IMG/VR virus record: IMGVR_UViG_3300045988_058524
Span: 85,118-149,117 of that record
DNA length: 64,000 nt
Reading direction: 5' to 3' (one strand)
From: a virus
Each line of letters opens with the position of its first letter. Position 1 is the stretch's first letter. Positions 12,228-64,000 of this stretch are shown here, one piece after another. The notes below the pieces were generated by a model. It saw only the letters and a list, made by a program, of their open reading frames with translations, had not been told where the DNA came from and did not search any database. A program made the position numbers and the translations under genes.

Positions 12228-12995
12228 TTAAATACCCATTACGTCCTTAATTAACAATGTCTTCTCAAATTTATTAACCAAATCTCTCTTATCTTGGGTA
12301 ATCAGGTCAGTAAATGCGTTATACACAGTAAATCCGTCTACAACATTGTCCGTCGTATAATACTTAGATTTTTCATCATAAAATAAATCTTTATAAACGT
12401 CAATCGGAGCAGATTCAGCTAATTTTACAGAACCAAATCCCATATTGATTTTAGAATTGATGCAATTATCAACCCAGTGGCCTAGGTCAGCGTATATATC
12501 ATCTTTCTTATATTCCATCTCTGAAAGCTTCTTAAGCATCAAGTTAGTTTCGTCTGTCATTGACATAGCATTTCTCAAAAAGCTATAGTTAATAGCAGAT
12601 TCAGGCTCTAGCTCAGAAACATTTAACATTTCTGGATTAAATACACACAGATTCAGACAAGCCATATTTAAAGCTCCTACATAGAACTTAACTAATGGTT
12701 TACGAGTATCTAGAGCATAAATCATACTGATTACTCTCTTATGATTATCCCAGGCATATTCGTCTGGTAAAACTCCTTGAATCCAAACTCTATTGTATAT
12801 TACATCATCAAAATTAATCTCCCCGTCTTTAGTAAGTGATATTTGGTCGGCAGGCTTAGCATTAATGATAAAGTTATCAGTCATCTTAGATACTCTGTCT
12901 ATAAACGGAGTCACATAAGCTTCTGTAGTAAAATACTCCTTATCCTTAATTCTAGTTGCCTTTCCCTGCATCAATTGTTCAATCGTCAATTCCAT
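12228..12995 (-). CDS. hypothetical protein
   Basis: ORF track. Confidence 0.35.
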   Translation of the reverse strand: MELTIEQLMQGKATRIKDKEYFTTEAYVTPFIDRVSKMTDNFIINAKPADQISLTKDGEINFDDVIYNRVWIQGVLPDEYAWDNHKRVISMIYALDTRKPLVKFYVGALNMACLNLCVFNPEMLNVSELEPESAINYSFLRNAMSMTDETNLMLKKLSEMEYKKDDIYADLGHWVDNCINSKINMGFGSVKLAESAPIDVYKDLFYDEKSKYYTTDNVVDGFTVYNAFTDLITQDKRDLVNKFEKTLLIKDVMGI

Positions 12996-13665
12996 TTATT
13001 TCTCCTTTTAATATACTATTAAGTATCTCTCCAGTGTCTGCCAAATCTACTCTGTCTGGCATCATCTCAAACGGTAGGTCATCTGCATCAAAATCCAGCA
13101 TAATTTGCTTCATATTAGATGTCTTATCTCCCCAATACTCACTTGGGGAACTTGTAGCTTTAGATATTGAATCTTCTAAGGTATTAATTAATCTTTTAAT
13201 ATCTTCAGTCATAGTTGCATGACATACAAACTTCGGAGTTGTTATCAAAAACATCCCAAAGTGGTCAATAATGAATTTATTGATATCTGTATAACCAAAC
13301 TCCTCCGCCAAATCTTTTAATTTTTTACTAAACTTGGTATATTGGTAGTTCTTTATTTTGAAGTAATAACCTATATCTTGAAGAAGTGCTTTCTTTAGGC
13401 AAGTTTTGTATCCTCTCATAGTCCTACCCACAACAGAATCCCCTACTTTGCATTCGTGCAATATAAAGGTTATTTTTCCATCTTTGAAGTACCATCCAAA
13501 TCCATCTGTCCAATAAAACTTTAGTAGTATACATTCCCCATTAGAGGATGTGCTTATACCTAGTTTTACTGCATCTTCTAACATAGGTTCATTACTGACT
13601 ACCCCATTCTCGTCCAAAGCATTATACAGGATTTCTTCACCTGTGTACCGTTTCCATTTATCCAT
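12979..13665 (-). CDS. hypothetical protein
   Basis: ORF track. Confidence 0.35.
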   Translation of the reverse strand: MDKWKRYTGEEILYNALDENGVVSNEPMLEDAVKLGISTSSNGECILLKFYWTDGFGWYFKDGKITFILHECKVGDSVVGRTMRGYKTCLKKALLQDIGYYFKIKNYQYTKFSKKLKDLAEEFGYTDINKFIIDHFGMFLITTPKFVCHATMTEDIKRLINTLEDSISKATSSPSEYWGDKTSNMKQIMLDFDADDLPFEMMPDRVDLADTGEILNSILKGEINGIDD

Positions 13666-13740
13666 TTAATCGTTAATTAGTTGTTACACTTTCATAATTA
13701 AATTACGTTTTATATCTATCAAACTTAAATTTATCTCAAA

Positions 13741-13774
13741 ATAAAAAAGGAAGACCACCCTAAGGTAATCTTCC
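13741..13774 (-). terminator. rho-independent terminator downstream of 13800..14357
   Basis: GGAAGA/TCTTCC stem with 14-nt loop, followed on the minus strand by UUUUUUAU. Confidence 0.5.
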
Positions 13775-13799
13775 TTTTAAAACTTATATCTTTAAGAAA

Positions 13800-14357
13800 T
13801 TAGGCTTCGATACCGAAAGCAATCCAAGTACCGTTCTTAGTGTTCTTAGAAGGAGTATATTGTGCAGTTGCTACTACAGCTTGTCCCTCAACAACATCCT
13901 TAGTCTTTACTAACTCAGCATTTCCTTTGTACTTACCGCTCTTATACAGCTCCTTAATTGCATTCTTAGCGTCAGCCTTGTTAGTATCAACCTGACAAAC
14001 TACTGTCTGAGTTTCCTTGTCAATCCACTTGTAGAATGTTTTAAACTTACGTTTTCCATCACCCTTAACATCGTCAATCTTATACGGACGCTCACGAGTG
14101 TCAGCAACAGACGATTCAACAGTAATCAAATAACCAGCACCAGGGCAGTTCTTACCTTTCTTTGCAAGATATTCAAGCATGAACTCTTTTACATCACGCT
14201 CTGTGATACCCTTAGTCTGCTTAGCTTTCCAATTTTTGTAAGCCTGTGTTGCATCTCCGTTTACATGGAACAATGTGCTTTCTACTTGTGCGATTGCTGC
14301 TTCTTTGCTTTCTGCTACTACTTCTACTTTCTTAAAATTCAAAATCGTTGTACTCAT
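13800..14357 (-). CDS. hypothetical, probably highly expressed Lys/Ala-rich protein
   Basis: Codon usage is visibly more GC-rich than neighbouring genes; strong terminator follows. Confidence 0.4.
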   Translation of the reverse strand: MSTTILNFKKVEVVAESKEAAIAQVESTLFHVNGDATQAYKNWKAKQTKGITERDVKEFMLEYLAKKGKNCPGAGYLITVESSVADTRERPYKIDDVKGDGKRKFKTFYKWIDKETQTVVCQVDTNKADAKNAIKELYKSGKYKGNAELVKTKDVVEGQAVVATAQYTPSKNTKNGTWIAFGIEA

Positions 14358-14502
14358 AATAAATAAAAATTTTAAACATAAATCATTAACATATAATCTA
14401 GAACTATTTTTCTGTATCTAATCAGTATCGTTTCCCTTACTGATGTAATCAATTATACTTCGTAATTTAGGGAAACCCTAATCTTTAAATGTTAATTTTA
14501 TG

Positions 14503-14979
14503 TTAAAGGGTGTTAAATTGACCCTAGTCACACACCTTATGCTAAATAATAAAATTTCCGACTTTTGTCTTTTTATTAGTTAAAGCATTCTTTATATCCT
14601 ATATCGGAAAACCTAAACTCTATGAACATTCCTATATGGAATCGTAATCCTTATAGAATATGCCCCTTGAGGTCCAGACTCTGATGTATTTTCTCTACTT
14701 GGCAATATTTTGAGACTATTCTACTAGTCTCTCTACACTATCATGAAAGTGTAAGATAATATAGTTGTTATCTTCAAACCATTCCTTAGCTACCTAGTAT
14801 TTTCTAAACATCTTATGGAGTAGCTTTTCTACCTGTTTATCTCCATCCCTTACATCTAACAATTGATATCCAAAGGCGCAGGTATTATAGCACTTCATTC
14901 TCCTCTAGACATCTTTAGCGAAGCCTATCTTCAAAAAGTTGTTGTTTCTTAATAGATATATCATAAAAATTTTTAACAT
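14503..14979 (-). CDS. GIY-YIG homing endonuclease readable only if TAG is decoded as sense (9 in-frame TAG, terminates TAA)
   Basis: Manual translation. MLKIFMIYLLRNNNFLKIGFAKDV*RRMK matches the GIY-YIG core (compare I-TevI GIYQIKNTLNNKVYVGSAKDFEKRWKRH). C-terminus KDYDSI*ECS*SLGFPI*DIKNALTNKK resembles the HTH of homing endonucleases. ATG overlaps the upstream TAA as TAATG. No TAA/TGA in frame. Confidence 0.55.
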
Positions 14980-15329: not shown

Positions 15330-16350
15330 CCAGAGAATAGTCTCTATAACCTATCTGATATGCTACATACTTCAATAGAGTTTTAAACTCATGAAATCCC
15401 TCACGTAATTCTCCATAAGTAACCGGTCTAACCTTACTATAAAAGTTTGGAATAGTAGAAACTACCAAGTAATTAGCTTGGATTTTAGGATTCTTTAGGT
15501 GATAGAACTTCTCAGCACATAGCTTCAGAAGATATAAATACATTGCAAACTCTCTACTGTAATGAAACTTCTTGATATTATTGTCGATTTCACTGACAAT
15601 CTTACCAATAGTTTTTATATCATTCACTACAATAGTGTTAGTCTCCATATCTATGGTATAATTATCTAATTTGGACTTTAAGTGCAAAATGAACTTCTTG
15701 CCGTTGGGACAAGTAGCTTCCACGTCCAATAAAATAGCTTGCTCATTTTCAGAAATAGGTGTTTTAGTTATCCCTTCAGGATGTAAAAGTTTCTGTACTT
15801 GCTTATTGCTATTTAATGCAGCCACACAAGATTTTACGATTTCTAGTGACTTATTATCAAGGTATATAATTTCCTTATCCTGAGCCAAATCAAATTCTTT
15901 AAGCTGTCTATTCTTCCAATAATTGGTAGATGCTTCAATAACAGACTTAGCTAGGTCTTTGGTAAGTTTTCCTTTGTAATATTCAACTTTATCTGAAGCA
16001 GCCTTCACATCATCAAATTTTACATCTCCCTTAAGGAAAACTGGATAAAGCTCATTAGCCATCGCTCCCAACTTAGCAGTCGGTTTACCAATGTCTTCTG
16101 AAAGCTCAAAACTATCTGGCTGTAACACGAGTTCGTGTACGGCACTACCAAGCTCAAGTGCAGAAGAGAAGGTATTTTTAAATCCAGTGAAAAATTTATC
16201 TGGATTTCCATCTTGCCTAGGATTAATTAATCCCAAACGAGAATTACTTACATATCCACTATATTGCTCGGAAAAATACACCTTATCACTTATCTTCTCT
16301 AACCTTAGCGTGTCTAGCAGAGGTCTAAGCTTGATGTCTTTTAATTCCAT
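15301..16350 (-). CDS. hypothetical protein
   Basis: ORF track. Confidence 0.35.
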   Translation of the reverse strand: MELKDIKLRPLLDTLRLEKISDKVYFSEQYSGYVSNSRLGLINPRQDGNPDKFFTGFKNTFSSALELGSAVHELVLQPDSFELSEDIGKPTAKLGAMANELYPVFLKGDVKFDDVKAASDKVEYYKGKLTKDLAKSVIEASTNYWKNRQLKEFDLAQDKEIIYLDNKSLEIVKSCVAALNSNKQVQKLLHPEGITKTPISENEQAILLDVEATCPNGKKFILHLKSKLDNYTIDMETNTIVVNDIKTIGKIVSEIDNNIKKFHYSREFAMYLYLLKLCAEKFYHLKNPKIQANYLVVSTIPNFYSKVRPVTYGELREGFHEFKTLLKYVAYQIGYRDYSLDERPSKYQL

Positions 16351-16859
16351 CCTAAAGTCTCTAATTCTAATTCATATGCAAATCTAATTTCGTTAATATC
16401 TAAACTATAAATGCGAAATAATGGGTCTCCATTCTGATTATGGGGTCTGTCAATTAACAGGGCTGGAAGACCAGAATTGATAGCCATTTGTACATTACTA
16501 ATACTATCATCAATTAATACATCGCATTTGCCTTTTATCAAGTCAGCCTTATTTCCATGCTGATAATACATTTGATAAATAGGTCTTATGGGTAAATTGT
16601 ATTTAGCTAGACAATTCCTAGTATAAACCTTACTGTTTATTCTCTTTGTGGCATAAATATATGGTTCAAAATTTGGTTTCTCTAGCAAGGGTAAATTTTC
16701 CCAAAACTCCTTATTATAGCGAAGACTTACTACGTTCCGTGTAATTACGTGTTCAACTAAATCAGATTCCCTTGGAAATAGAGCCTTGTAAGCTCCCCAA
16801 AAGTCAAAGATAGTATCATCCAAGTCTAGTGCTATTCTCAATGGATTATATAAATTCAT
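16341..16859 (-). CDS. HAD-superfamily 5'-(deoxy)nucleotidase-like hydrolase
   Basis: N-terminal DLDDTIFD (DxDxT) motif. Confidence 0.45.
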   Translation of the reverse strand: MNLYNPLRIALDLDDTIFDFWGAYKALFPRESDLVEHVITRNVVSLRYNKEFWENLPLLEKPNFEPYIYATKRINSKVYTRNCLAKYNLPIRPIYQMYYQHGNKADLIKGKCDVLIDDSISNVQMAINSGLPALLIDRPHNQNGDPLFRIYSLDINEIRFAYELELETLGWN

Positions 16860-17067: not shown

Positions 17068-17312
17068 AACTCGATTACTTCAATAACATTTAATCGCTTC
17101 TTAATTAAAAGTTCAAGGTCTTCTCTATCCACGTAGACAAAGTGACTCTTTTTCAAATCAGATAATGTAGAGTCAAATTCTAGAGAAAATGCTTCCTCAG
17201 TTCTCCAATTCTTCTTAGCTGTCCTCAAATAGAGGGCATACTCGTCATCAAAGTCATTAACTACACAGTTCTTAATCGTAGGAATTGGACCTTTAACTAT
17301 TAACTTTTTCAT
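17064..17312 (-). CDS. hypothetical protein
   Basis: ORF track. Confidence 0.3.
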   Translation of the reverse strand: MKKLIVKGPIPTIKNCVVNDFDDEYALYLRTAKKNWRTEEAFSLEFDSTLSDLKKSHFVYVDREDLELLIKKRLNVIEVIEL

Positions 17313-17593
17313 TTCTTAAGCAATTCATAAAAATATTCTATAGGTATTACAGCTACTTGACCCACGCTAGGTGCTCCGTTCTTTCCTGCCTTCTTCCAAC
17401 ATATACAGAACGGTTTAGATTTATCACTACAAGCGTCCCTAATGTCAAAATAGTTTGGCATATTTTGGGTGAATTTAGCTTGGATATTAACTGGGAGTTC
17501 GTTATTCATATCTACAATGTCTATCTTATCAGCATCAGCCAATTTATTCTGACTTCTACTGGATACACACCCTTCATATCCTATGTCTCTCAA
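17309..17593 (-). CDS. hypothetical protein
   Basis: ORF track. Confidence 0.3.
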   Translation of the reverse strand: MRDIGYEGCVSSRSQNKLADADKIDIVDMNNELPVNIQAKFTQNMPNYFDIRDACSDKSKPFCICWKKAGKNGAPSVGQVAVIPIEYFYELLKK

Positions 17594-17837
17594 TTTGTGA
17601 ATTATTTCTAACTCATACTGAGAACCTTTCTGCTTACTTTTCTTAGCTTGCTTGCTTCTTCTTACTGCTGGGTCAGCCCATTCAAAAGTAATTCCATCTT
17701 TTGACTTCGCTCCAGAGCCAGGTTTATTAGCTCTGGCTTTAATAGAATTTATCTCTAGACCTGTTACTTCTGATGCTTCCTCTATGGTTTCAAAAGTTTT
17801 CTTTTCGCCATTTTTAAATGTGGCTGTAACACTTGTA

Positions 17838-18851
17838 TTAGTCTACTTTTTCATTCTTCTTAAATTTCTTTATGTAGTTAGTAATAAATTCTTGTGTACC
17901 CTTTCTTCCGTACATATGATAGTAATCACTTATATCCTTAGCTCCTGTACTTCTGGGAATCATTGATACAATTAGTTCTGGATGTTGCTTTCTAATCTTA
18001 TTAGTAAAACGTACTCCAGTTAAATCATTATCATATAGCAACACAACATATTTGAATCTCTGCTTTAATTCTTCTAATACTTTATCAGAAACAAACTGAG
18101 TTTCAGAGTTGGGAGCTATAGCTGGTATTCCTAAAGAATATAAACACATAACATCTTTCATAGACTTAGTTATCACAACTAGTTTACCACTCTTAACTAA
18201 TTGTTTATAGCCTTGAATGGTTTTAGTAGGAACATTGCCTATGAATCTAAACTCCTTTCGTTTTGGCATATAAATACGCCATTGCTCAATGTTTTCTTTC
18301 TTTCCAAAATAGTAACCATAGATAGGACTATGTTGGGCAGATTGTGCATATATATTTCCGTTGAGAAATACAGTATTACAACTGTAGACCTTGAATTTAT
18401 ACAGAATATCTTTAGTAATACCAAAACTTCCCCACCACTTCAACTCAGATTCTGAGAAATCCTTGGCTTCTATTTGAATAAAGGTTTGTTTTTCCTCTTC
18501 AAACTTCGGCTGGATTTTCACTGCAACTTTCTTTACAGAAGAGTCCTTAGTATATCCAAAGTCTTTAGCTATAATCTTTAAAGCAGTGTGGTAGTTACAA
18601 TTATACTTTTCCATAACTACTCCTTCAAATGTCAGACACTTTCCAGAAGCAAAGTCTTTAAAATACAAGTTTCCAGATTTTCCTCTAAAGAAACTGCAGG
18701 TGACGTGACTGTCACTACGCAAAGGAGACTTAAACAATCCTTTCTTAACTGGGATGCCCAGATAATAAGTCATGTAAGTCTCCTCATTGTTCTTAGATAG
18801 AAGAAATTCCTTAGTAATTTTTGGTTCAAAAGTATAATTAAACATAGTCAC
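17838..18851 (-). CDS. DNA primase (TOPRIM domain)
   Basis: C-terminal TOPRIM-like segment with LLYDNDLTG acidic motif. Lies next to the DnaB-like helicase gene. Confidence 0.5.
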   Translation of the reverse strand: MTMFNYTFEPKITKEFLLSKNNEETYMTYYLGIPVKKGLFKSPLRSDSHVTCSFFRGKSGNLYFKDFASGKCLTFEGVVMEKYNCNYHTALKIIAKDFGYTKDSSVKKVAVKIQPKFEEEKQTFIQIEAKDFSESELKWWGSFGITKDILYKFKVYSCNTVFLNGNIYAQSAQHSPIYGYYFGKKENIEQWRIYMPKRKEFRFIGNVPTKTIQGYKQLVKSGKLVVITKSMKDVMCLYSLGIPAIAPNSETQFVSDKVLEELKQRFKYVVLLYDNDLTGVRFTNKIRKQHPELIVSMIPRSTGAKDISDYYHMYGRKGTQEFITNYIKKFKKNEKVD

Positions 18852-27554: not shown

Positions 27555-27568
27555 CTCTTTTTAAATTA

Positions 27569-28381
27569 CTATCCGCATACATCTATCACTGTTAAATTAT
27601 TATTACTAGGCTTATATCCGTAATCACAATATGAATTAGTTATTATAACACGATCAAAATTGTTACACAGCTTTACCAAGCCTTTGATATTTACAGCATG
27701 ACAAACTATAATCTCGAATTTAGAGTCTGGATATCTCTCTTTAAGAACTTTGAGCTCCCCAAGGAATGTTCCTCCAGCGTCACACAAATCATCAATAAAA
27801 GTAAAGGTCGGACAATAACAATTAACCTCTCTTCCAATGGAAAACTCCTTAATCTTACCAGTTTCCAAATCTCTCACCTTATTGAACACAATATGTCCCC
27901 AATTATTAGAGAGAATTTTGTACCTCTGGTAAGCTCCAGCGTCTGGGAACACAATATTAGATTGAACATCCAGATGCGATTCAAAGTTAAACTTTTGAGG
28001 ATAACATCTAGTTCCTAACAATCCCTTAGTTCTTTCCGAATGGGGTTCCAAAATCATAACATAACGATAGTTCATAGTATTCAAGATACTACAAACCACC
28101 TTTAGAGAAAATGGGCGGTTAAAGTCCATTACTCTATCCATACGCATGGACATTAGATAGGTAATAAACAAATCCCACTCAATCTCTTGTCTATCAAGAA
28201 TGTCTCCGACTTGAGTTAGAATAAATAATTCTTCAGCAGAAGTAATTCTACATATAACCTTTACTGAATCTTTCCTATCAAATTCGTCAGGAAAACTTAT
28301 CTGAGGTTCTCCGTCAGGAAATCTAGTGAGATTATACTTAATCTCACTCTTGTCCAAGTTAATTAAGTTTAATAATTTCAT
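27569..28381 (-). CDS. ribose-phosphate pyrophosphokinase-like (PRPP synthetase family)
   Basis: PRPP-binding motif FIDDLCDAGGT. N-terminal FPDGEPQISF resembles Prs FxDGE. Ends with TAG immediately followed by in-frame TAA. Confidence 0.5.
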   Translation of the reverse strand: MKLLNLINLDKSEIKYNLTRFPDGEPQISFPDEFDRKDSVKVICRITSAEELFILTQVGDILDRQEIEWDLFITYLMSMRMDRVMDFNRPFSLKVVCSILNTMNYRYVMILEPHSERTKGLLGTRCYPQKFNFESHLDVQSNIVFPDAGAYQRYKILSNNWGHIVFNKVRDLETGKIKEFSIGREVNCYCPTFTFIDDLCDAGGTFLGELKVLKERYPDSKFEIIVCHAVNIKGLVKLCNNFDRVIITNSYCDYGYKPSNNNLTVIDVCG

Positions 28382-28841: not shown

Positions 28842-30327
28842 CTTCGAACACAGTCTCTAAGCAGCCTCCGCTTTCTACCTCAGGAGTTACCTGGTCTTCA
28901 GCATAGTAAACGCCATTAACGTCCTGATAGACAGCAATTAGACCTTTAAGAGAATTTTTAGTTCCATCATCTGTTTTAGGATGTTTGAATATTTCTTTCA
29001 ATTCTCCATTAACTACACAAGCAGTAGCTTTGATTGCAAAGCCTAAGCTATCTCTACTTGCATACTGATATGAAAATGAACCTACTCCTAGAACAAGATT
29101 GCAAGCTGCCATATGAGCATTCTCAAGTCGCATATAGATTTGTTTCTGACGTTCTAGTGTAATAGAATCGCCATATAACAAGCCTATTTTTGTACTAGGA
29201 TAACGATAATCCCTAGAAGTAGTATTCCAGCCGAATATTTTACCAAGCATATAATAAGCGCCATAGTATTGACCTTCTGAAACTTCTACATACTCAGCAT
29301 CATCGTTAAATGGGGCATAGCAACAATAATACTTACCCTCTTTCATCCTGGTATGGAAGTGGGGATTAGTTCTCAGCCCACAAATAATATCAACAGGGTC
29401 TCCGCTATCTGGACGAATAACTACACGTCCATCACGAGCCATAATATCCTTCTTTAATTTGGGAAGGAAGTTTTCAATAACATTCCAGAAGTCCCAAGTA
29501 TCAGAAACTATAGAAACGAACCCAGATGGATACAATTCGTTAATTAATCGCTTAAAGGTTTGAAGTTCATCCTCTTCTCCGCCAGCACACATTACAGAAT
29601 GTTCTGTAGCTGGAACAGTGGCAGCAATTAATTCATTGTCAGAATTTGCACCATAATATTCTTCTAGAGCAGCAATAGCTGGAATGGTCTCACTTCCAAC
29701 AAACGAAATCATATGTGCCATACCAGAAATGATAGCGGCCTCTAAACCAGCCATTCCTCTCATGGAGAAGTCGTGACACAAGAAATCCAGATTTACATCT
29801 TCTGGAAATCCAGTATGTACTGCGTGTCTTTTAAGTTCCTTCTTATAGAGTCTTGCTCTAGTAGCAGAGGTACAAGGCATCCACAGAGTACAACTAATCA
29901 AAGTCTCTAGATAATTAGTTAACCAGAAGAACTCTGACTTTGTATTAGTAATAGTCATCATGGGAACTCTAATAGGACACACTGAACCTTCTGGCAACGC
30001 TTTAATGCGAATGGGAAGATAACCCAAATCATATAGAGCTTCAATATGTCTGTATCCTACAGACTCAATTCCCACGAAATTATGGACTCTCCGATAAAAC
30101 ATTTCTATAGCCTTTTCTTTAGGTAATCCAAAGAAATTCTGATTAAATTCATCAATCAGATACTTCTTAATTAAATATTGGATTCCGAATACTACAGAAC
30201 CTTCAGTGGCTTCTGGAAAGTATTTGTTGCTTCTGGGAGTCCAATTACTGTAAACTTGTTCAGTACCTTCTGGGTACATTCTGTGGTGGCCCAATTTATA
30301 GCCATCTGTTGCATTAATTATTTCCAT
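28765..30327 (-). CDS. nicotinamide phosphoribosyltransferase (Nampt/NadV-like)
   Basis: 520 aa. N-terminal DGYKLGHHRMYP region and overall length typical of the Nampt family. Family-level recognition without alignment. Confidence 0.6.
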   Translation of the reverse strand: MEIINATDGYKLGHHRMYPEGTEQVYSNWTPRSNKYFPEATEGSVVFGIQYLIKKYLIDEFNQNFFGLPKEKAIEMFYRRVHNFVGIESVGYRHIEALYDLGYLPIRIKALPEGSVCPIRVPMMTITNTKSEFFWLTNYLETLISCTLWMPCTSATRARLYKKELKRHAVHTGFPEDVNLDFLCHDFSMRGMAGLEAAIISGMAHMISFVGSETIPAIAALEEYYGANSDNELIAATVPATEHSVMCAGGEEDELQTFKRLINELYPSGFVSIVSDTWDFWNVIENFLPKLKKDIMARDGRVVIRPDSGDPVDIICGLRTNPHFHTRMKEGKYYCCYAPFNDDAEYVEVSEGQYYGAYYMLGKIFGWNTTSRDYRYPSTKIGLLYGDSITLERQKQIYMRLENAHMAACNLVLGVGSFSYQYASRDSLGFAIKATACVVNGELKEIFKHPKTDDGTKNSLKGLIAVYQDVNGVYYAEDQVTPEVESGGCLETVFEDGVLKKEYTLKEIRQRINEGLYGKF

Positions 30328-34708: not shown

Positions 34709-35090
34709 CGCTCCAAGATTCTATAACACCAATCAACTCTAGCATACCATATCTACACATAGCCTTAAATGGCCCAGTAGATATAGAAACAAATGTTGAT
34801 TTACTGTTTCTATAATTTCTTATTACTTGCGTAAGTAAGTCTCTAGCTAGTGCTCTTAGGTCAGAAATAGATGGAACTCTGTACTCTCCAGGACTTATAT
34901 ACATCCTCCAAGGAGACTTTCCTACACATTTCCCATCATCGTCATATGTTCTATGACTCTTGTCCCAACTCATATATTCTAGAACCTTATCAAAGTCAAA
35001 GTTCTTCATGATGTAGTCACACTGAACATCAAGAGGTGGGGCATCACTAAAATTTCTTGTCTTCTTTACTTTCATTTTTATAACATTCAA
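34701..35090 (-). CDS. hypothetical protein
   Basis: ORF track. Confidence 0.3.
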   Translation of the reverse strand: MNVIKMKVKKTRNFSDAPPLDVQCDYIMKNFDFDKVLEYMSWDKSHRTYDDDGKCVGKSPWRMYISPGEYRVPSISDLRALARDLLTQVIRNYRNSKSTFVSISTGPFKAMCRYGMLELIGVIESWSDD

Positions 35091-46691: not shown

Positions 46692-47008
46692 ATAGTTAAT
46701 TTTCTCCACGGGTGTAGATAAGTACCCTTTGGTACTTACCTTTTAGTAGTATCTTTACTCTAGACCTCTATAAGGAGGCGGAATAGTTCCAGAAACTAAC
46801 CATGTATAGCTCTTAGAACTCTGTTCAAAATACCACTTAGCAGCTTTCTTCACAACATTAATTACTTTCTTCATAACATCAAAGTTTAAAATTGTTAATA
46901 ATTAATCTAATTCAGAGCCACAAAAGGAGTTTAGTTGCGGAGGTAGGATTATTTCCAAATAAATTTATATGCAGTTTTCAATTTCCCTTTTACACATAAA
47001 CTAATCTT

Positions 47009-47584
47009 CTAGCGAACACCTCCATTATAAGTTTTAGCATAACCATTGTCTACTAACCAGTGTGCAGCATCGGCTATACTGTTCCAAGTCCTGATAAAAT
47101 TATTATTTAAATCATACTGAGATATTGATACAGGTTGCTTGCAACTTCCCAAATAAAATTTGTTCTTTGGTATATTGTTTATATTTATTACTTTAGAAAC
47201 TGTATCAACAGAACATTGCATTTTGGCGGAAACTTCAATCATTGTCATTCCGCTAGTATATAAAGATATTATTTCTTTATAATCGAATAAGATAGCTCCA
47301 TCGCCTCCCATAGTAGCATTATAGCCATTTGAGTATGTGTCTAGCTTATCTATAAATTGAATTTCATAAGAAGCTAATTCCTCATCATCACATTCATACA
47401 GCTACTCAACTATAAAGTTCTCAACACCATACTTATTCATGGCATCATATAAAGGTCTTTTGTTGCATCTTTCTTTCTAAAAGTCATAACAATGTTCCTT
47501 CCAGCGCTCTTCTATAGAAGTAGTAGTTTTTCCTACGTATCGCTTGCTATTAATTAAATTTGTAATGCAATAAATATATGCCAT
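47009..47584 (-). CDS. GIY-YIG homing endonuclease interrupted by two in-frame TAG codons (and TAG-terminated)
   Basis: Single frame reads MAYIYCITNLINSKRYVGKTTTSIEERWKEHCYDF-TAG-KERCNKRPLYDAMNKYGVENFIVE-TAG-LYECDDEELASYEIQ...MGGDGAILFDYKEI...GGVR-TAG. In-frame TAGs are at 47477-79 and 47402-04. Track pieces 47477..47740 and 47009..47311 lie in the same frame. Confidence 0.5.
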
Positions 47585-47604
47585 ATTTTTAAATTTAAAA
47601 TTAG

Positions 47605-47689
47605 AATCCGTGGAGGGATTCGAACCCTCATTAAAGATTTCTCTTTTCAGTTTTGCAGACTGATGGCTAAACCATTCACCCACACGGAT
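47605..47689 (-). tRNA. type II (Ser-like architecture) tRNA with GCA (Cys) anticodon and U73
   Basis: Acceptor ATCCGTG/CACGGAT. D-arm TGGGTGAATGGTTTAGCC resembles the tRNA-Ser(GCT) at 53358. Anticodon stem TCAGT/ACTGA with loop CTGCAAA. 17-nt variable hairpin AAAGA-GAAA-TCTTT. T-arm GAGGGTTCGAATCCCTC. Confidence 0.55.
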
Positions 47690-59684: not shown

Positions 59685-59752
59685 GTGTAAGTATGTGTTT
59701 CACAACAAATACTCACTGCGTAAGAAAAAGAAAAATTCAAGAAAATTGCCTG

Positions 59753-59826
59753 TGACTCCGCTGGGATTCGAACCCAGGACCCCCAAATTAAAAGTTTGGT
59801 GCTCTAACCAACTGAGCTACGGAGTC
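59753..59826 (-). tRNA. tRNA-Lys(TTT)
   Basis: Acceptor GACTCCG/CGGAGTC; anticodon loop CTTTTAA; T-arm CTGGGTTCGAATCCCAG. Confidence 0.8.
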
Positions 59827-59841
59827 ATTTTAATGATAAAG

Positions 59842-59915
59842 TATCCCGTGAAGGATTCGAACCTTCGACCCACAGCTTAGAAGGCTGTTGCTCTATCCAA
59901 CTGAGCTAACGGGAC
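59842..59915 (-). tRNA. tRNA-Arg(TCT)
   Basis: Acceptor GTCCCGT/ACGGGAT; anticodon loop CTTCTAA; T-arm GAAGGTTCGAATCCTTC. Confidence 0.8.
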
Positions 59916-59967
59916 ATCGTGTTCGCTATTATATACAGCGAACTACGTTCTTCTTAGTTAATAATTG

Positions 59968-62954: not shown

Positions 62955-64000
62955 TTTTATTAATTATTACTAGAACTATTAGTTTCAGCTTGAATAGCTT
63001 ACTTATCTCCTAAACCACGTAAAGGTTGTTCTTATCTTAGGAGTAGAGGCACCGCTGTGCCTCACAATTGTCTCAGAACTTTCCTGTGCCTATAGCCAAA
63101 TGGCTATTTTCGATTATATAGTGTATAATCTCACAATACTTTGCCTTATCTCTCGATAAGACATCTCTCCAGTATCAAGGAGCATACTGTTTGGTATAAG
63201 AGATGCTCTGCATTAGTCTCTGGGCGTACCCATTATAGTCCTTAACAGCAAATAGAGCCTACAAGTAGCTGTAGTCCTCAAATACTAAGTTCCCCACTCC
63301 GGGTTTGAACCAGAATCTCCTTCTTTAGAGGAAGGCGCAATGCATTATACTAATGGGGAAAACTCTATCTTGGCAACTAGTATAAGATAGAGAGTTATTC
63401 AACTACTTAATTCTCAGTTTCCTATACTGAAAATCAAATAGCTACGTTACTAACGTTCACTAAGAATATAGGTAGCTAATCCATATTCTTGCGACTGAGT
63501 TCGAGGTAGGAAATATACCCTTATGAGGTATCCTCTTATCAGCTAGCCTTATTAATCTAGCGGCTTATACCAGGCAACTTCTAATACAATTGTATAACAT
63601 ATAAAAATATGACATACATGGTCTACTGGTATGTCAGCAGTACTTTCATATATTGCTATAAGTGACCAATCTTATAGCTCAATCCTCCTTACTCATGAGA
63701 TAAGTTTGCGAACTCTCATTTTCATTAATAGCAGTTATTTTCGGATATTGGGCTATCTGCGTAACCCCGCTTTTTGTTGCCTTTTTATAGGCTAATGTTA
63801 GAGTAAATAATCATTGTAGTATGAGTTATAAAACTCGTCCTACTGACGATTTTTTGAAAACTGGAAAAAGTAGGAAAATCTGCCTTTGAGTTTGTGGAAC
63901 ATTCTTCTCCTTACTCTCCATATTTTCACGTGAAACATACACGATTTTACTAGAAATGATAGTCTTTCCTATCAGCCAGACATAAAAACTAAAACTACTA

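Follow-up and report, generated by a model that had tools for sequence, protein, structure and literature searches.

A predicted mobile homing endonuclease with nine in-frame TAG codons in the early gene block of a human-gut phage with late-gene UAG recoding

Endonucleases and recoding in related phages

Free-standing homing endonucleases of the GIY-YIG superfamily are carried by T4-like and T5-like phages (the seg and mob genes, and the T5orf172 family, PF10544). The gene described here, located at 14503-14964 of a 64-kb stretch of phage DNA (the window, that is, the whole stretch that was analysed), resembles them in being a small intergenic ORF with an N-terminal nuclease of the GIY-YIG clan and a possible C-terminal NUMOD/HTH part, and also in its presence/absence polymorphism at a fixed site between close relatives. 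However, it differs from the T4 and T5 genes in having nine sense TAG codons, and its cleavage activity and target site are putative.

A close precedent for such a gene is already published. In the TGA-recoded Agate phages, recoding preferentially affects a group I intron endonuclease of an early gene, and the enzyme is thereby expected by the authors to be withheld until late infection (Borges et al., bioRxiv 10.1101/2021.08.26.457843). The two cases have in common a homing endonuclease that is itself written with recoded stops and is located among the early genes, where the code is standard. Nonetheless, the Agate endonuclease is intron-encoded and its phages reassign TGA to Trp, whereas the present one is a free-standing intergenic cassette of T5orf172 type in a phage that would reassign TAG to Gln. 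Moreover, recoding is preferential in Agate, whereas here it does not rise above the level of the late genes. The present locus is the TAG, free-standing counterpart of the TGA intron case and reveals no new coding mechanism.

Recoding of TAG to Gln in late genes, together with phage suppressor tRNAs, has been described for crAss-like and other gut phages (Yutin et al. 2021, PMC7886860; bioRxiv 10.1101/2021.08.26.457843; PMC9523058), and there is proteomic proof that TAG is read as Q in crAss-like phages (Peters et al. 2022, PMC9523058). Among these, the Zeta group has genomes of 145-192 kb with a complex module for replication and nucleotide metabolism, numerous tRNAs (suppressors among them), a variable reassignment of TAG or TGA, and an unusually high load of mobile endonucleases (PMC7886860, PMC12386605). 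The present phage is similar to the Zeta-group code-15 phages in its human-gut genome of ~185-192 kb, in its standard-code block with PolA, a DnaG-type primase, DnaB, Thy1, UDG, dUTPase and NrdD, in its many tRNAs including tRNA(CUA), in the location of TAG largely in late structural genes, and in its many mobile endonuclease genes. The difference is that the present lineage has two tRNA(CUA), one per strand.

Judging from its sequence, the source is a human-gut phage of ~185-192 kb (about 188 kb) with a terminase that is distantly crAss-like. Contigs holding exact copies of window proteins measure 183-192 kb and are very common in human gut assemblies. GenBank searches for related phages, by megablast with three segments and by tblastn with two proteins, returned only unannotated faecal fragments and distant terminases of Crassvirales, which are the only annotated terminase relatives (24-26% identity). 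Also, a 671-aa protein belongs to phrog_1735, a widespread family without taxonomic signal. Based on the genome size of 185-192 kb, the gene content and the terminase identity, the phage is probably a relative of the Zeta group of crAss-like phages.

The endonuclease gene and its insertion site

Under the standard code, a gap of 621 bp separates two minus-strand genes (14358-14978), with no ORF of at least 45 codons in it. The first-pass annotation had placed a coding frame in this gap of ~620 bp, with nine TAG codons, no TAA or TGA, and a TAA at its end. Retranslation of 14979..14503 on the minus strand agrees with this in every respect, giving 159 codons, nine TAG, no in-frame TAA or TGA and a terminal TAA at 14503-14505; upstream of it, the extension to 15048 is free of TAA and TGA as well. 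In-frame TAA and TGA are absent from just 7 of 100,000 shuffles of the endonuclease sequence, and the open frame is not explained by chance or base composition. Since off-frame or antisense stretches of genuine genes in the window are sometimes also free of TAA and TGA while containing 6-12 TAG (examples in Table 1), the stop pattern alone is insufficient as proof; a Pfam match and a signature of purifying selection, both described below, further support that the gap is coding.

The same annotation took as start the ATG that overlaps the TAA of the upstream gene (TAATG; ATG-1, 14979), and here a correction is needed. TAATG is present in empty-site alleles too, one of which carries …CCATTTTAATGTTAAAAATTTTAACATCCTTTAAGATC…, and filled alleles differ in the length of the A/T run that separates ATG-1 from ATG-2 (14964), so that several of them have ATG-1 out of frame. 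The empty-allele junction reads TAATGTTAAAAATTTT followed by AACATCC, and TAATGTTAAAAATTTT is therefore flank. Given the variable A/T run and the presence of TAATGTTAAAAATTTT in empty-site alleles, the CDS starts at ATG-2, and the TAATG at the stop of the upstream gene is flanking sequence. The 159-codon frame is open throughout, but the CDS comprises 153 of its codons. Counted from ATG-2, the protein begins with MIYLLRNNNF and the first TAG is codon 20. Public gene calls (P0001-P0005) give the endonuclease protein with Q at the TAG positions, evidently under code 15.

Table 1. Features of the window and of related genomes (window coordinates unless a relative or contig is named)
Feature	Position or source	Strand	Remarks
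Predicted endonuclease CDS	14503..14964	minus	153 codons + TAA, nine sense TAG; start at second ATG
TAG codons of the 159-codon frame	codons 25, 62, 88, 95, 116, 120, 127, 146, 152	minus	
TAG positions, codons 25/62/88/95	14905-07, 14794-96, 14716-18, 14695-97	minus	
TAG positions, codons 116/120/127/146/152	14632-34, 14620-22, 14599-01, 14542-44, 14524-26	minus	
T5orf172/MUG113 nuclease domain (GIY-YIG clan)	14767..14961	minus	spans TAG codons 20 and 57 (ATG-2 numbering)
C-terminal NUMOD-like/HTH DNA-binding module, weak match	14578..14655	minus	spans three TAG codons
Mobile cassette, ~451 bp	14515..14965	.	missing from empty-site alleles
Upstream flanking early gene, 116 aa	14979..15329	minus	standard code intact; TAA abuts insertion site
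Downstream flanking early gene, 185 aa	13800..14357	minus	standard code intact
TAA/TGA-free off-frame/antisense example	54350-54664	plus	
TAA/TGA-free off-frame/antisense example	28998-29342	minus	
Second homing endonuclease, canonical GIY-YIG + NUMOD1	46949..47584	minus	between tRNA genes; three TAG
TAG codons of the second endonuclease	47477-79, 47402-04, 47009-11	minus	
Amber-suppressor tRNA, anticodon CUA	63289..63359	minus	ARAGORN ('Pyl' label); Rfam tRNA; cloverleaf fold
HNH/endonuclease VII-like gene	relative L087		9 TAG
PDDEXK_5 nucleases	relatives L002 and L004, among tRNA genes		3 TAG each
LAGLIDADG ORF splitting terminase	relative L087		1 TAG
LAGLIDADG gene, early block	relative L009		0 TAG
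Large terminase	contig 3300045988_065177		6+9 TAG; phrog_6681, E=5.6e-17 and 4.6e-31
Portal	contig 3300045988_065177		32 TAG; phrog_6547, E=1.2e-47
Three further large late ORFs	contig 3300045988_065177		8, 19, 20 TAG

In a Pfam search, the gene matched T5orf172 (PF10544; 36.9 bits against a cutoff of 20, E=5.5e-9) and MUG113 (PF13455; 34.8 bits against a cutoff of 22.3, E=2.5e-8). Both alignments cover residues 7-71 and continue over the first two TAG positions, as had been anticipated for a frame in which TAG is sense, and the precomputed Pfam hits of P0001-P0005 agree with them. PHROG matches fall in several families, including phrog_681 'endonuclease'. The N-terminal part had been taken for a GIY-YIG core comparable to that of I-TevI; membership in the GIY-YIG clan stands, through T5orf172 and MUG113, but the canonical, I-TevI-type identity is rejected because PF01541 gave no match to the gene at E<=1 and T5orf172 matches instead.

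No variation is seen in the segments MIYLL, LKIGFA, RRMK, LLHKMF and KEWFED when the window copy is compared with P0002 and with P0005 (50% diverged), and we assume for their residues the catalytic roles that they have in the GIY-YIG clan. Moreover, the motif residues of the T5orf172/GIY-YIG clan are all present, none of them being replaced by TAG: the I-Y-L strand, K-I-G, the Arg after the second strand, the His helix and E-W-F. For the C-terminal third, the helix-turn-helix proposed earlier finds weak backing: I-HmuI_NUMOD-like (PF22083) matches with E=0.0037 and 17.3 bits, below its cutoff of 27, and the best PDB match of the predicted structure in Foldseek is I-HmuI (1u3e, E=0.026, probability 0.99). 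In this AlphaFold model, built from a three-sequence alignment, the C-terminal part has pLDDT values of 81-89 and residues 1-90 of 34-60, and no PDB match in Foldseek covers this N-terminal, low-pLDDT half. The product is thus a predicted protein of homing-endonuclease type, with a T5orf172 nuclease and, by a weak match, a NUMOD-like DNA-binding tail.

A comparison with related genomes shows that the gene lies within a cassette that can be missing. In the faecal phage fragment MT836281, which is 88-91% identical, both sides align without the endonuclease gene, 22 nt standing in place of the ~460 of the window. Fifty-nine related loci were obtained from IMG/VR, fetched with the upstream 116-aa gene and nearly all from genomes assembled at 95-193 kb; 13 of them have the cassette at exactly the same junction and 46 are without it. 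The empty alleles nearest to the window read …CCATTTTAATGTTAAAAATTTT/AACATCCTTTAAG…, where the slash marks the junction, and the last three sense codons of the gene with its stop (AAC ACC CTT TAA, 14503-14514) are derived from the flank. In one relative (L068) the cassette is 98-100% identical to that of the window, with sharp edges, and the flanks are 60-85% identical; in another (L028) the flanks are 97-100% identical and the cassette 77-93%. These opposite patterns indicate that cassette identity is uncoupled from flank divergence. A scan for sigma-70 promoters and terminators around the cassette gave nothing above shuffle expectation, promoters of Bacteroidota type being outside its scope. 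The selfish, mobile character proposed for the gene is supported by the occupancy of this one junction, the sharp identity edges and the empty alleles themselves, and the gene is best described as a free-standing, mobile element at a fixed intergenic site.

TAG in the early and late genes of the phage

The window is one long minus-strand block that encodes RNA ligase, DNA ligase, NrdD, primase, DnaB-like and SF1 helicases and nicotinamide phosphoribosyltransferase, with 24 tRNA genes, and the adjoining DNA of near-identical contigs also encodes PolA, a sigma-like factor, Thy1, UDG and PNKP. Past the right end of the window the strand switches, and the late block, on the opposite strand, starts ~2.5 kb past this end. 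In-frame TAG is abundant in the genes of this opposite strand both in L002 (97-99% identity to the window) and in L087. L087 and L022 belong to the same 188,828-bp contig (3300045988_065177), with identities to the window of 98.3% and 99.1%, and the endonuclease gene of L022 is 100% identical to the window copy.

The recoded late genes include terminase, portal and tail-like genes, and the matches to phrog_6681 and phrog_6547 continue across in-frame TAG. Pooled, the late genes have 104 TAG in 3,249 codons (3.2%), TAG making up 56% of the Gln-type codons, whereas the 32 early genes checked in the window have none in 10,112 codons (0/287 Gln-type codons). For the endonuclease the share is 9/13 (0.69), which differs from that of the early genes (Fisher, p=1.5e-14) but not from that of the late genes (p=0.40); a recoding beyond the late-gene level is rejected accordingly. 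Also, relatives down to 45% terminase identity are recoded. On this pattern of codons, the whole phage is a code-15 phage in which UAG is predicted to be read as Gln in late genes by a phage tRNA(CUA).

The minus-strand ORFs of the window end with TAA (63), TGA (29) or TAG (8), and the TAG stops are backed by TAA or TGA 0-22 codons downstream, a usage that fits a genome adapted to amber read-through. One of these stops, at 27569, had been taken as a real terminator. It is the nominal stop of its gene, although a TAA follows it directly (GGA TAG TAA).

The search for a suppressor tRNA that the first-pass annotation had recommended found a tRNA(CUA) among the 24 tRNA genes of the window and a second one beyond the window end. 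The former scores 43.9 bits against an Rfam tRNA cutoff of 29 and is an early-strand gene close to the head of the block. It is atypical, with no GG in the D-loop and a match to tRNA-Gln at just 38 of 71 positions, and its similarity to the other tRNAs of the phage gave no amino-acid identity. The second tRNA(CUA), located ~1.8 kb past the window end on the late strand and kept in more distant relatives, shares 52 of 73 positions with the tRNA-Gln(UUG) of the phage, among them those of the acceptor and D arms. Moreover, when 22 terminase N-termini, all of them recoded and 45-98% identical, are aligned, the columns heavily populated by TAG pair mainly with Gln, whereas those where TAG is rare pair mostly with its single-step neighbours Glu or Lys, and close relatives differ by one change between CAG and TAG in a late gene. 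Gln is the best-supported reading of TAG for this phage, in line with the proteomics of other crAss-like phages (PMC9523058), and probably also the one that would apply within the endonuclease gene itself.

Many, though not all, of the nuclease cassettes in this lineage are recoded. A second endonuclease gene in the window (46949-47584) matches the canonical GIY-YIG family (PF01541, E=2.6e-10) and phrog_314, homing endonuclease (E=1.3e-27), and nuclease genes of relatives are given with their TAG counts in Table 1. A frame at 48198-48989 with 8 TAG was discarded as noise, since it matches no family and shares its TAG-rich part with a TAG-free ORF of a different frame. Further frames with TAG, located in gaps between ORFs of the standard code, were also set aside, being unlike proteins or on the wrong strand, with the possible exception of 17309-17854. 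A literature search for RAGATH-14 returned no match.

Alternative readings and the timing of expression

In three alleles that are 6-12% diverged (L028, L029 and L030) the frame stays open, and their dN/dS against the window copy, with TAG treated as sense, is 0.155, 0.149 and 0.092, respectively. At two codons of the endonuclease, alleles have either TAG or CAG, single codons show exchanges of TAG with AAG, with GAG and with TAT, and no TAA or TGA occurs among the natural alleles compared. L029 has a 1-nt insertion eight codons ahead of the stop. Moreover, an ortholog with 50% aa identity (P0005, in L135) occupies the same site in a 183-kb phage with its frame open; it has five TAG at positions other than those of the window copy, with two pairings of Q and TAG between both. 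This pattern of TAG turnover, open diverged copies and low dN/dS leads us to reject the view that the frame is a decaying pseudogene or a chance frame, the insertion being dead and its TAG codons having arisen as nonsense mutations. The off-frame stretches of the window that are equally free of TAA and TGA could be cited for it, as could the insertion in L029. However, the endonuclease region is intergenic and not off-frame of another gene, the domain match runs across TAG positions, and the cassette shows recent horizontal spread at 98-100% identity. The 57 differences between L028 and the window copy, which include no TAA, no TGA and no frameshift, point in the same direction but are weak alone, since 13% of the copies mutated in a random simulation also remain free of TAA and TGA. 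We consider decay or chance very improbable. The gene is, by this comparative evidence, intact and under purifying selection with TAG read as sense, and the original proposal that it belongs to a context in which UAG is sense is supported.

What did not survive is the proposal that recoding is gene-specific, the phage being otherwise of standard code and sense UAG being confined to selfish endonuclease genes. Within the 64-kb window, clear in-frame TAG is indeed found only in the two endonuclease genes, a third case being the doubtful N-terminal extension at 17309-17854, and the early genes checked are free of TAG. Nonetheless, the 104 TAG counted above lie in late genes (terminase, portal and others) of genomes with 98-99% identity to the window, and recoding extends to the relatives of 45% terminase identity. 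The impression of specificity arose because the window covers only the early, replication block, and this proposal now seems scarcely credible. Also, the import of the gene from a TAG-recoded phage becomes unnecessary, the resident phage being itself TAG-recoded. The large replication and nucleotide-metabolism block does use the standard code, and so do the two flanking genes.

The reading that we favour, with a probability of roughly 0.85, is that the early block of a code-15 phage carries a mobile endonuclease cassette in the dialect of the late genes, which would need efficient suppression for its full-length protein. Since nine UAG have to be read through, the first of them at codon 20, full-length endonuclease would be made only where amber suppression by the phage is efficient, and its yield would vary approximately with the ninth power of the read-through per codon. 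The early genes checked avoid TAG entirely, which suggests that suppression would not yet be reliable when they are translated; the endonuclease would then probably be made with the late proteins. In co-infections, the protein would probably cut the empty-site allele, and this would account for the spread seen for the cassette. However, suppression may start early, given the early-strand location of the in-window tRNA(CUA), and this would weaken the argument on timing.

This last point leads to the possibility of TAG codons without regulatory meaning, in a cassette that merely drifts to the codon usage that a code-15 phage tolerates, being under no need to be translated until suppression is in place, with suppression perhaps established early and no timing gate. 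Besides the position of the tRNA(CUA) at 63289-63359, the TAG share of 0.69 against 0.56 in late genes (no excess recoding), the free turnover of TAG between alleles and the LAGLIDADG gene without TAG in the early block of L009 would be in line with such neutral drift. Nonetheless, the absence of TAG among the 287 Gln-type codons of early genes indicates that TAG would be costly at that time and a nine-TAG gene inefficient, and TAG is present in further nuclease insertions of the lineage as well (nine in the HNH-like gene, three in each PDDEXK_5 gene). We regard neutral drift as a possible but rather doubtful account, and the cassette dependent on efficient suppression as the preferred one.

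This locus provides a population-level example, with dozens of filled, empty and allelic variants, of a standard-code early block that hosts a mobile endonuclease using the code of the late genes. The case speaks for a published idea, namely that translation is divided in time by stop-codon recoding, and extends it from a TGA-recoded intron endonuclease to free-standing endonucleases with TAG. Also, annotation under the standard code misses such genes and leaves a false intergenic gap, here of 620 bp. Finally, we tentatively raise the idea that the code switch doubles as a control on selfish DNA, holding endonuclease cassettes of the early block in the late-gene code. If this were true, cutting and homing would fall in the multi-copy phase late in infection, once suppression is near-complete; the cassettes would be silent in standard-code phages and hosts, the code acting as a containment barrier; and suppressor tRNAs in seemingly unrecoded lineages might serve such cassettes.

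Amber-suppressor tRNAs and an adjoining RNA motif

Besides the amber-suppressor tRNA(CUA) of the window, a second tRNA(CUA) is found in the near-identical loci L002 and L087, at a site about 1.8 kb past the right end of the window and on the opposite strand; the genome hence carries two amber suppressors, one per strand. This second tRNA and the phage tRNA-Gln(UUG) are identical at 52 of 73 positions, and its origin is clearly a tRNA-Gln. Also, the second tRNA(CUA) is kept in the relatives L111, L113, and L117.

The in-window suppressor tRNA is preceded on the same strand by a RAGATH-14 RNA, with 30 nt separating them. L087 has the pair as well, whereas the regions retrieved from more distant relatives did not show it, and a literature search on the motif returned no mention of it.

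Coordinates of the features described in this part
Feature	Locus	Position	Strand	Detail
Second tRNA(CUA)	L002	6712-6784	-	Rfam, 69.5 bits
Second tRNA(CUA)	L087	3182-3254	+	Rfam, 69.5 bits
RAGATH-14 RNA, full-length	window	63389-63582	-	RF03145, 183 bits (gathering score 149)
tRNA-Cys(GCA), long variable arm	window	47604-47689	-	86 nt
tRNA-Cys(GCA), normal	window	49471-49545		75 nt
Canonical GIY-YIG/NUMOD1 homing endonuclease gene	window	46949-47584	-	three in-frame TAG
Small PDDEXK_5 nuclease gene	L002	12817-13278		three in-frame TAG
Small PDDEXK_5 nuclease gene	L004 (related locus)	16194-16586		three in-frame TAG
RusA-like resolvase gene	window	17309-17854	-	phrog_244, residues 67-180
LAGLIDADG endonuclease ORF	L087	inside terminase insert		PF14528, E=3.6e-8

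In-frame TAG codons in nuclease genes

The GIY-YIG/NUMOD1 gene is placed between the genes for tRNA-Asn and tRNA-Cys, and the standard code breaks it into fragments (for example, 47009-47311). One of the two tRNA-Cys(GCA) genes of the window has an architecture unusual for tRNA-Cys and is found besides a normal copy. The PDDEXK_5 genes are inserted among tRNA genes in some relatives and absent from others, including the window, where the matching site is at about 59736-59947.

The RusA-like gene may be extended at its N-terminus by 66 residues, which give a weak NUMOD-like match. This extension would start MKK-TAG, with TAG as codon 4. When read with the standard code, the window shows a gap of 226 bp at this position, where the faecal phage fragment MT836281 has an additional 225 bp.

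Replaced and interrupted genes

Nearly all of the 228-aa gene at 12979-13665 (12996-13660) has no counterpart at the DNA level in MT836281; there, the conserved flanks enclose an unrelated stretch of about 590 bp instead. This is another replaced cassette, two genes from the endonuclease. Moreover, the large terminase gene of L087 (9983-13532, + strand) is interrupted by about 1.1 kb, with no group I intron detected at the split at the Rfam gathering threshold, and that of L002 is called as a single 786-aa product. L113 does have a detected group I intron, at 13662-13954 in its late region.

TAG codons at gene ends

Few genes have a TAG terminator, with a TAA or TGA back-up 0-22 codons downstream (for example, 27566-27571 and 35044-35049). 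In two TAG-ending genes the second stop follows directly, as in GGA TAG TAA at 27569. Such back-up stops are what one would expect where a phage's own amber suppression acts on its genome.
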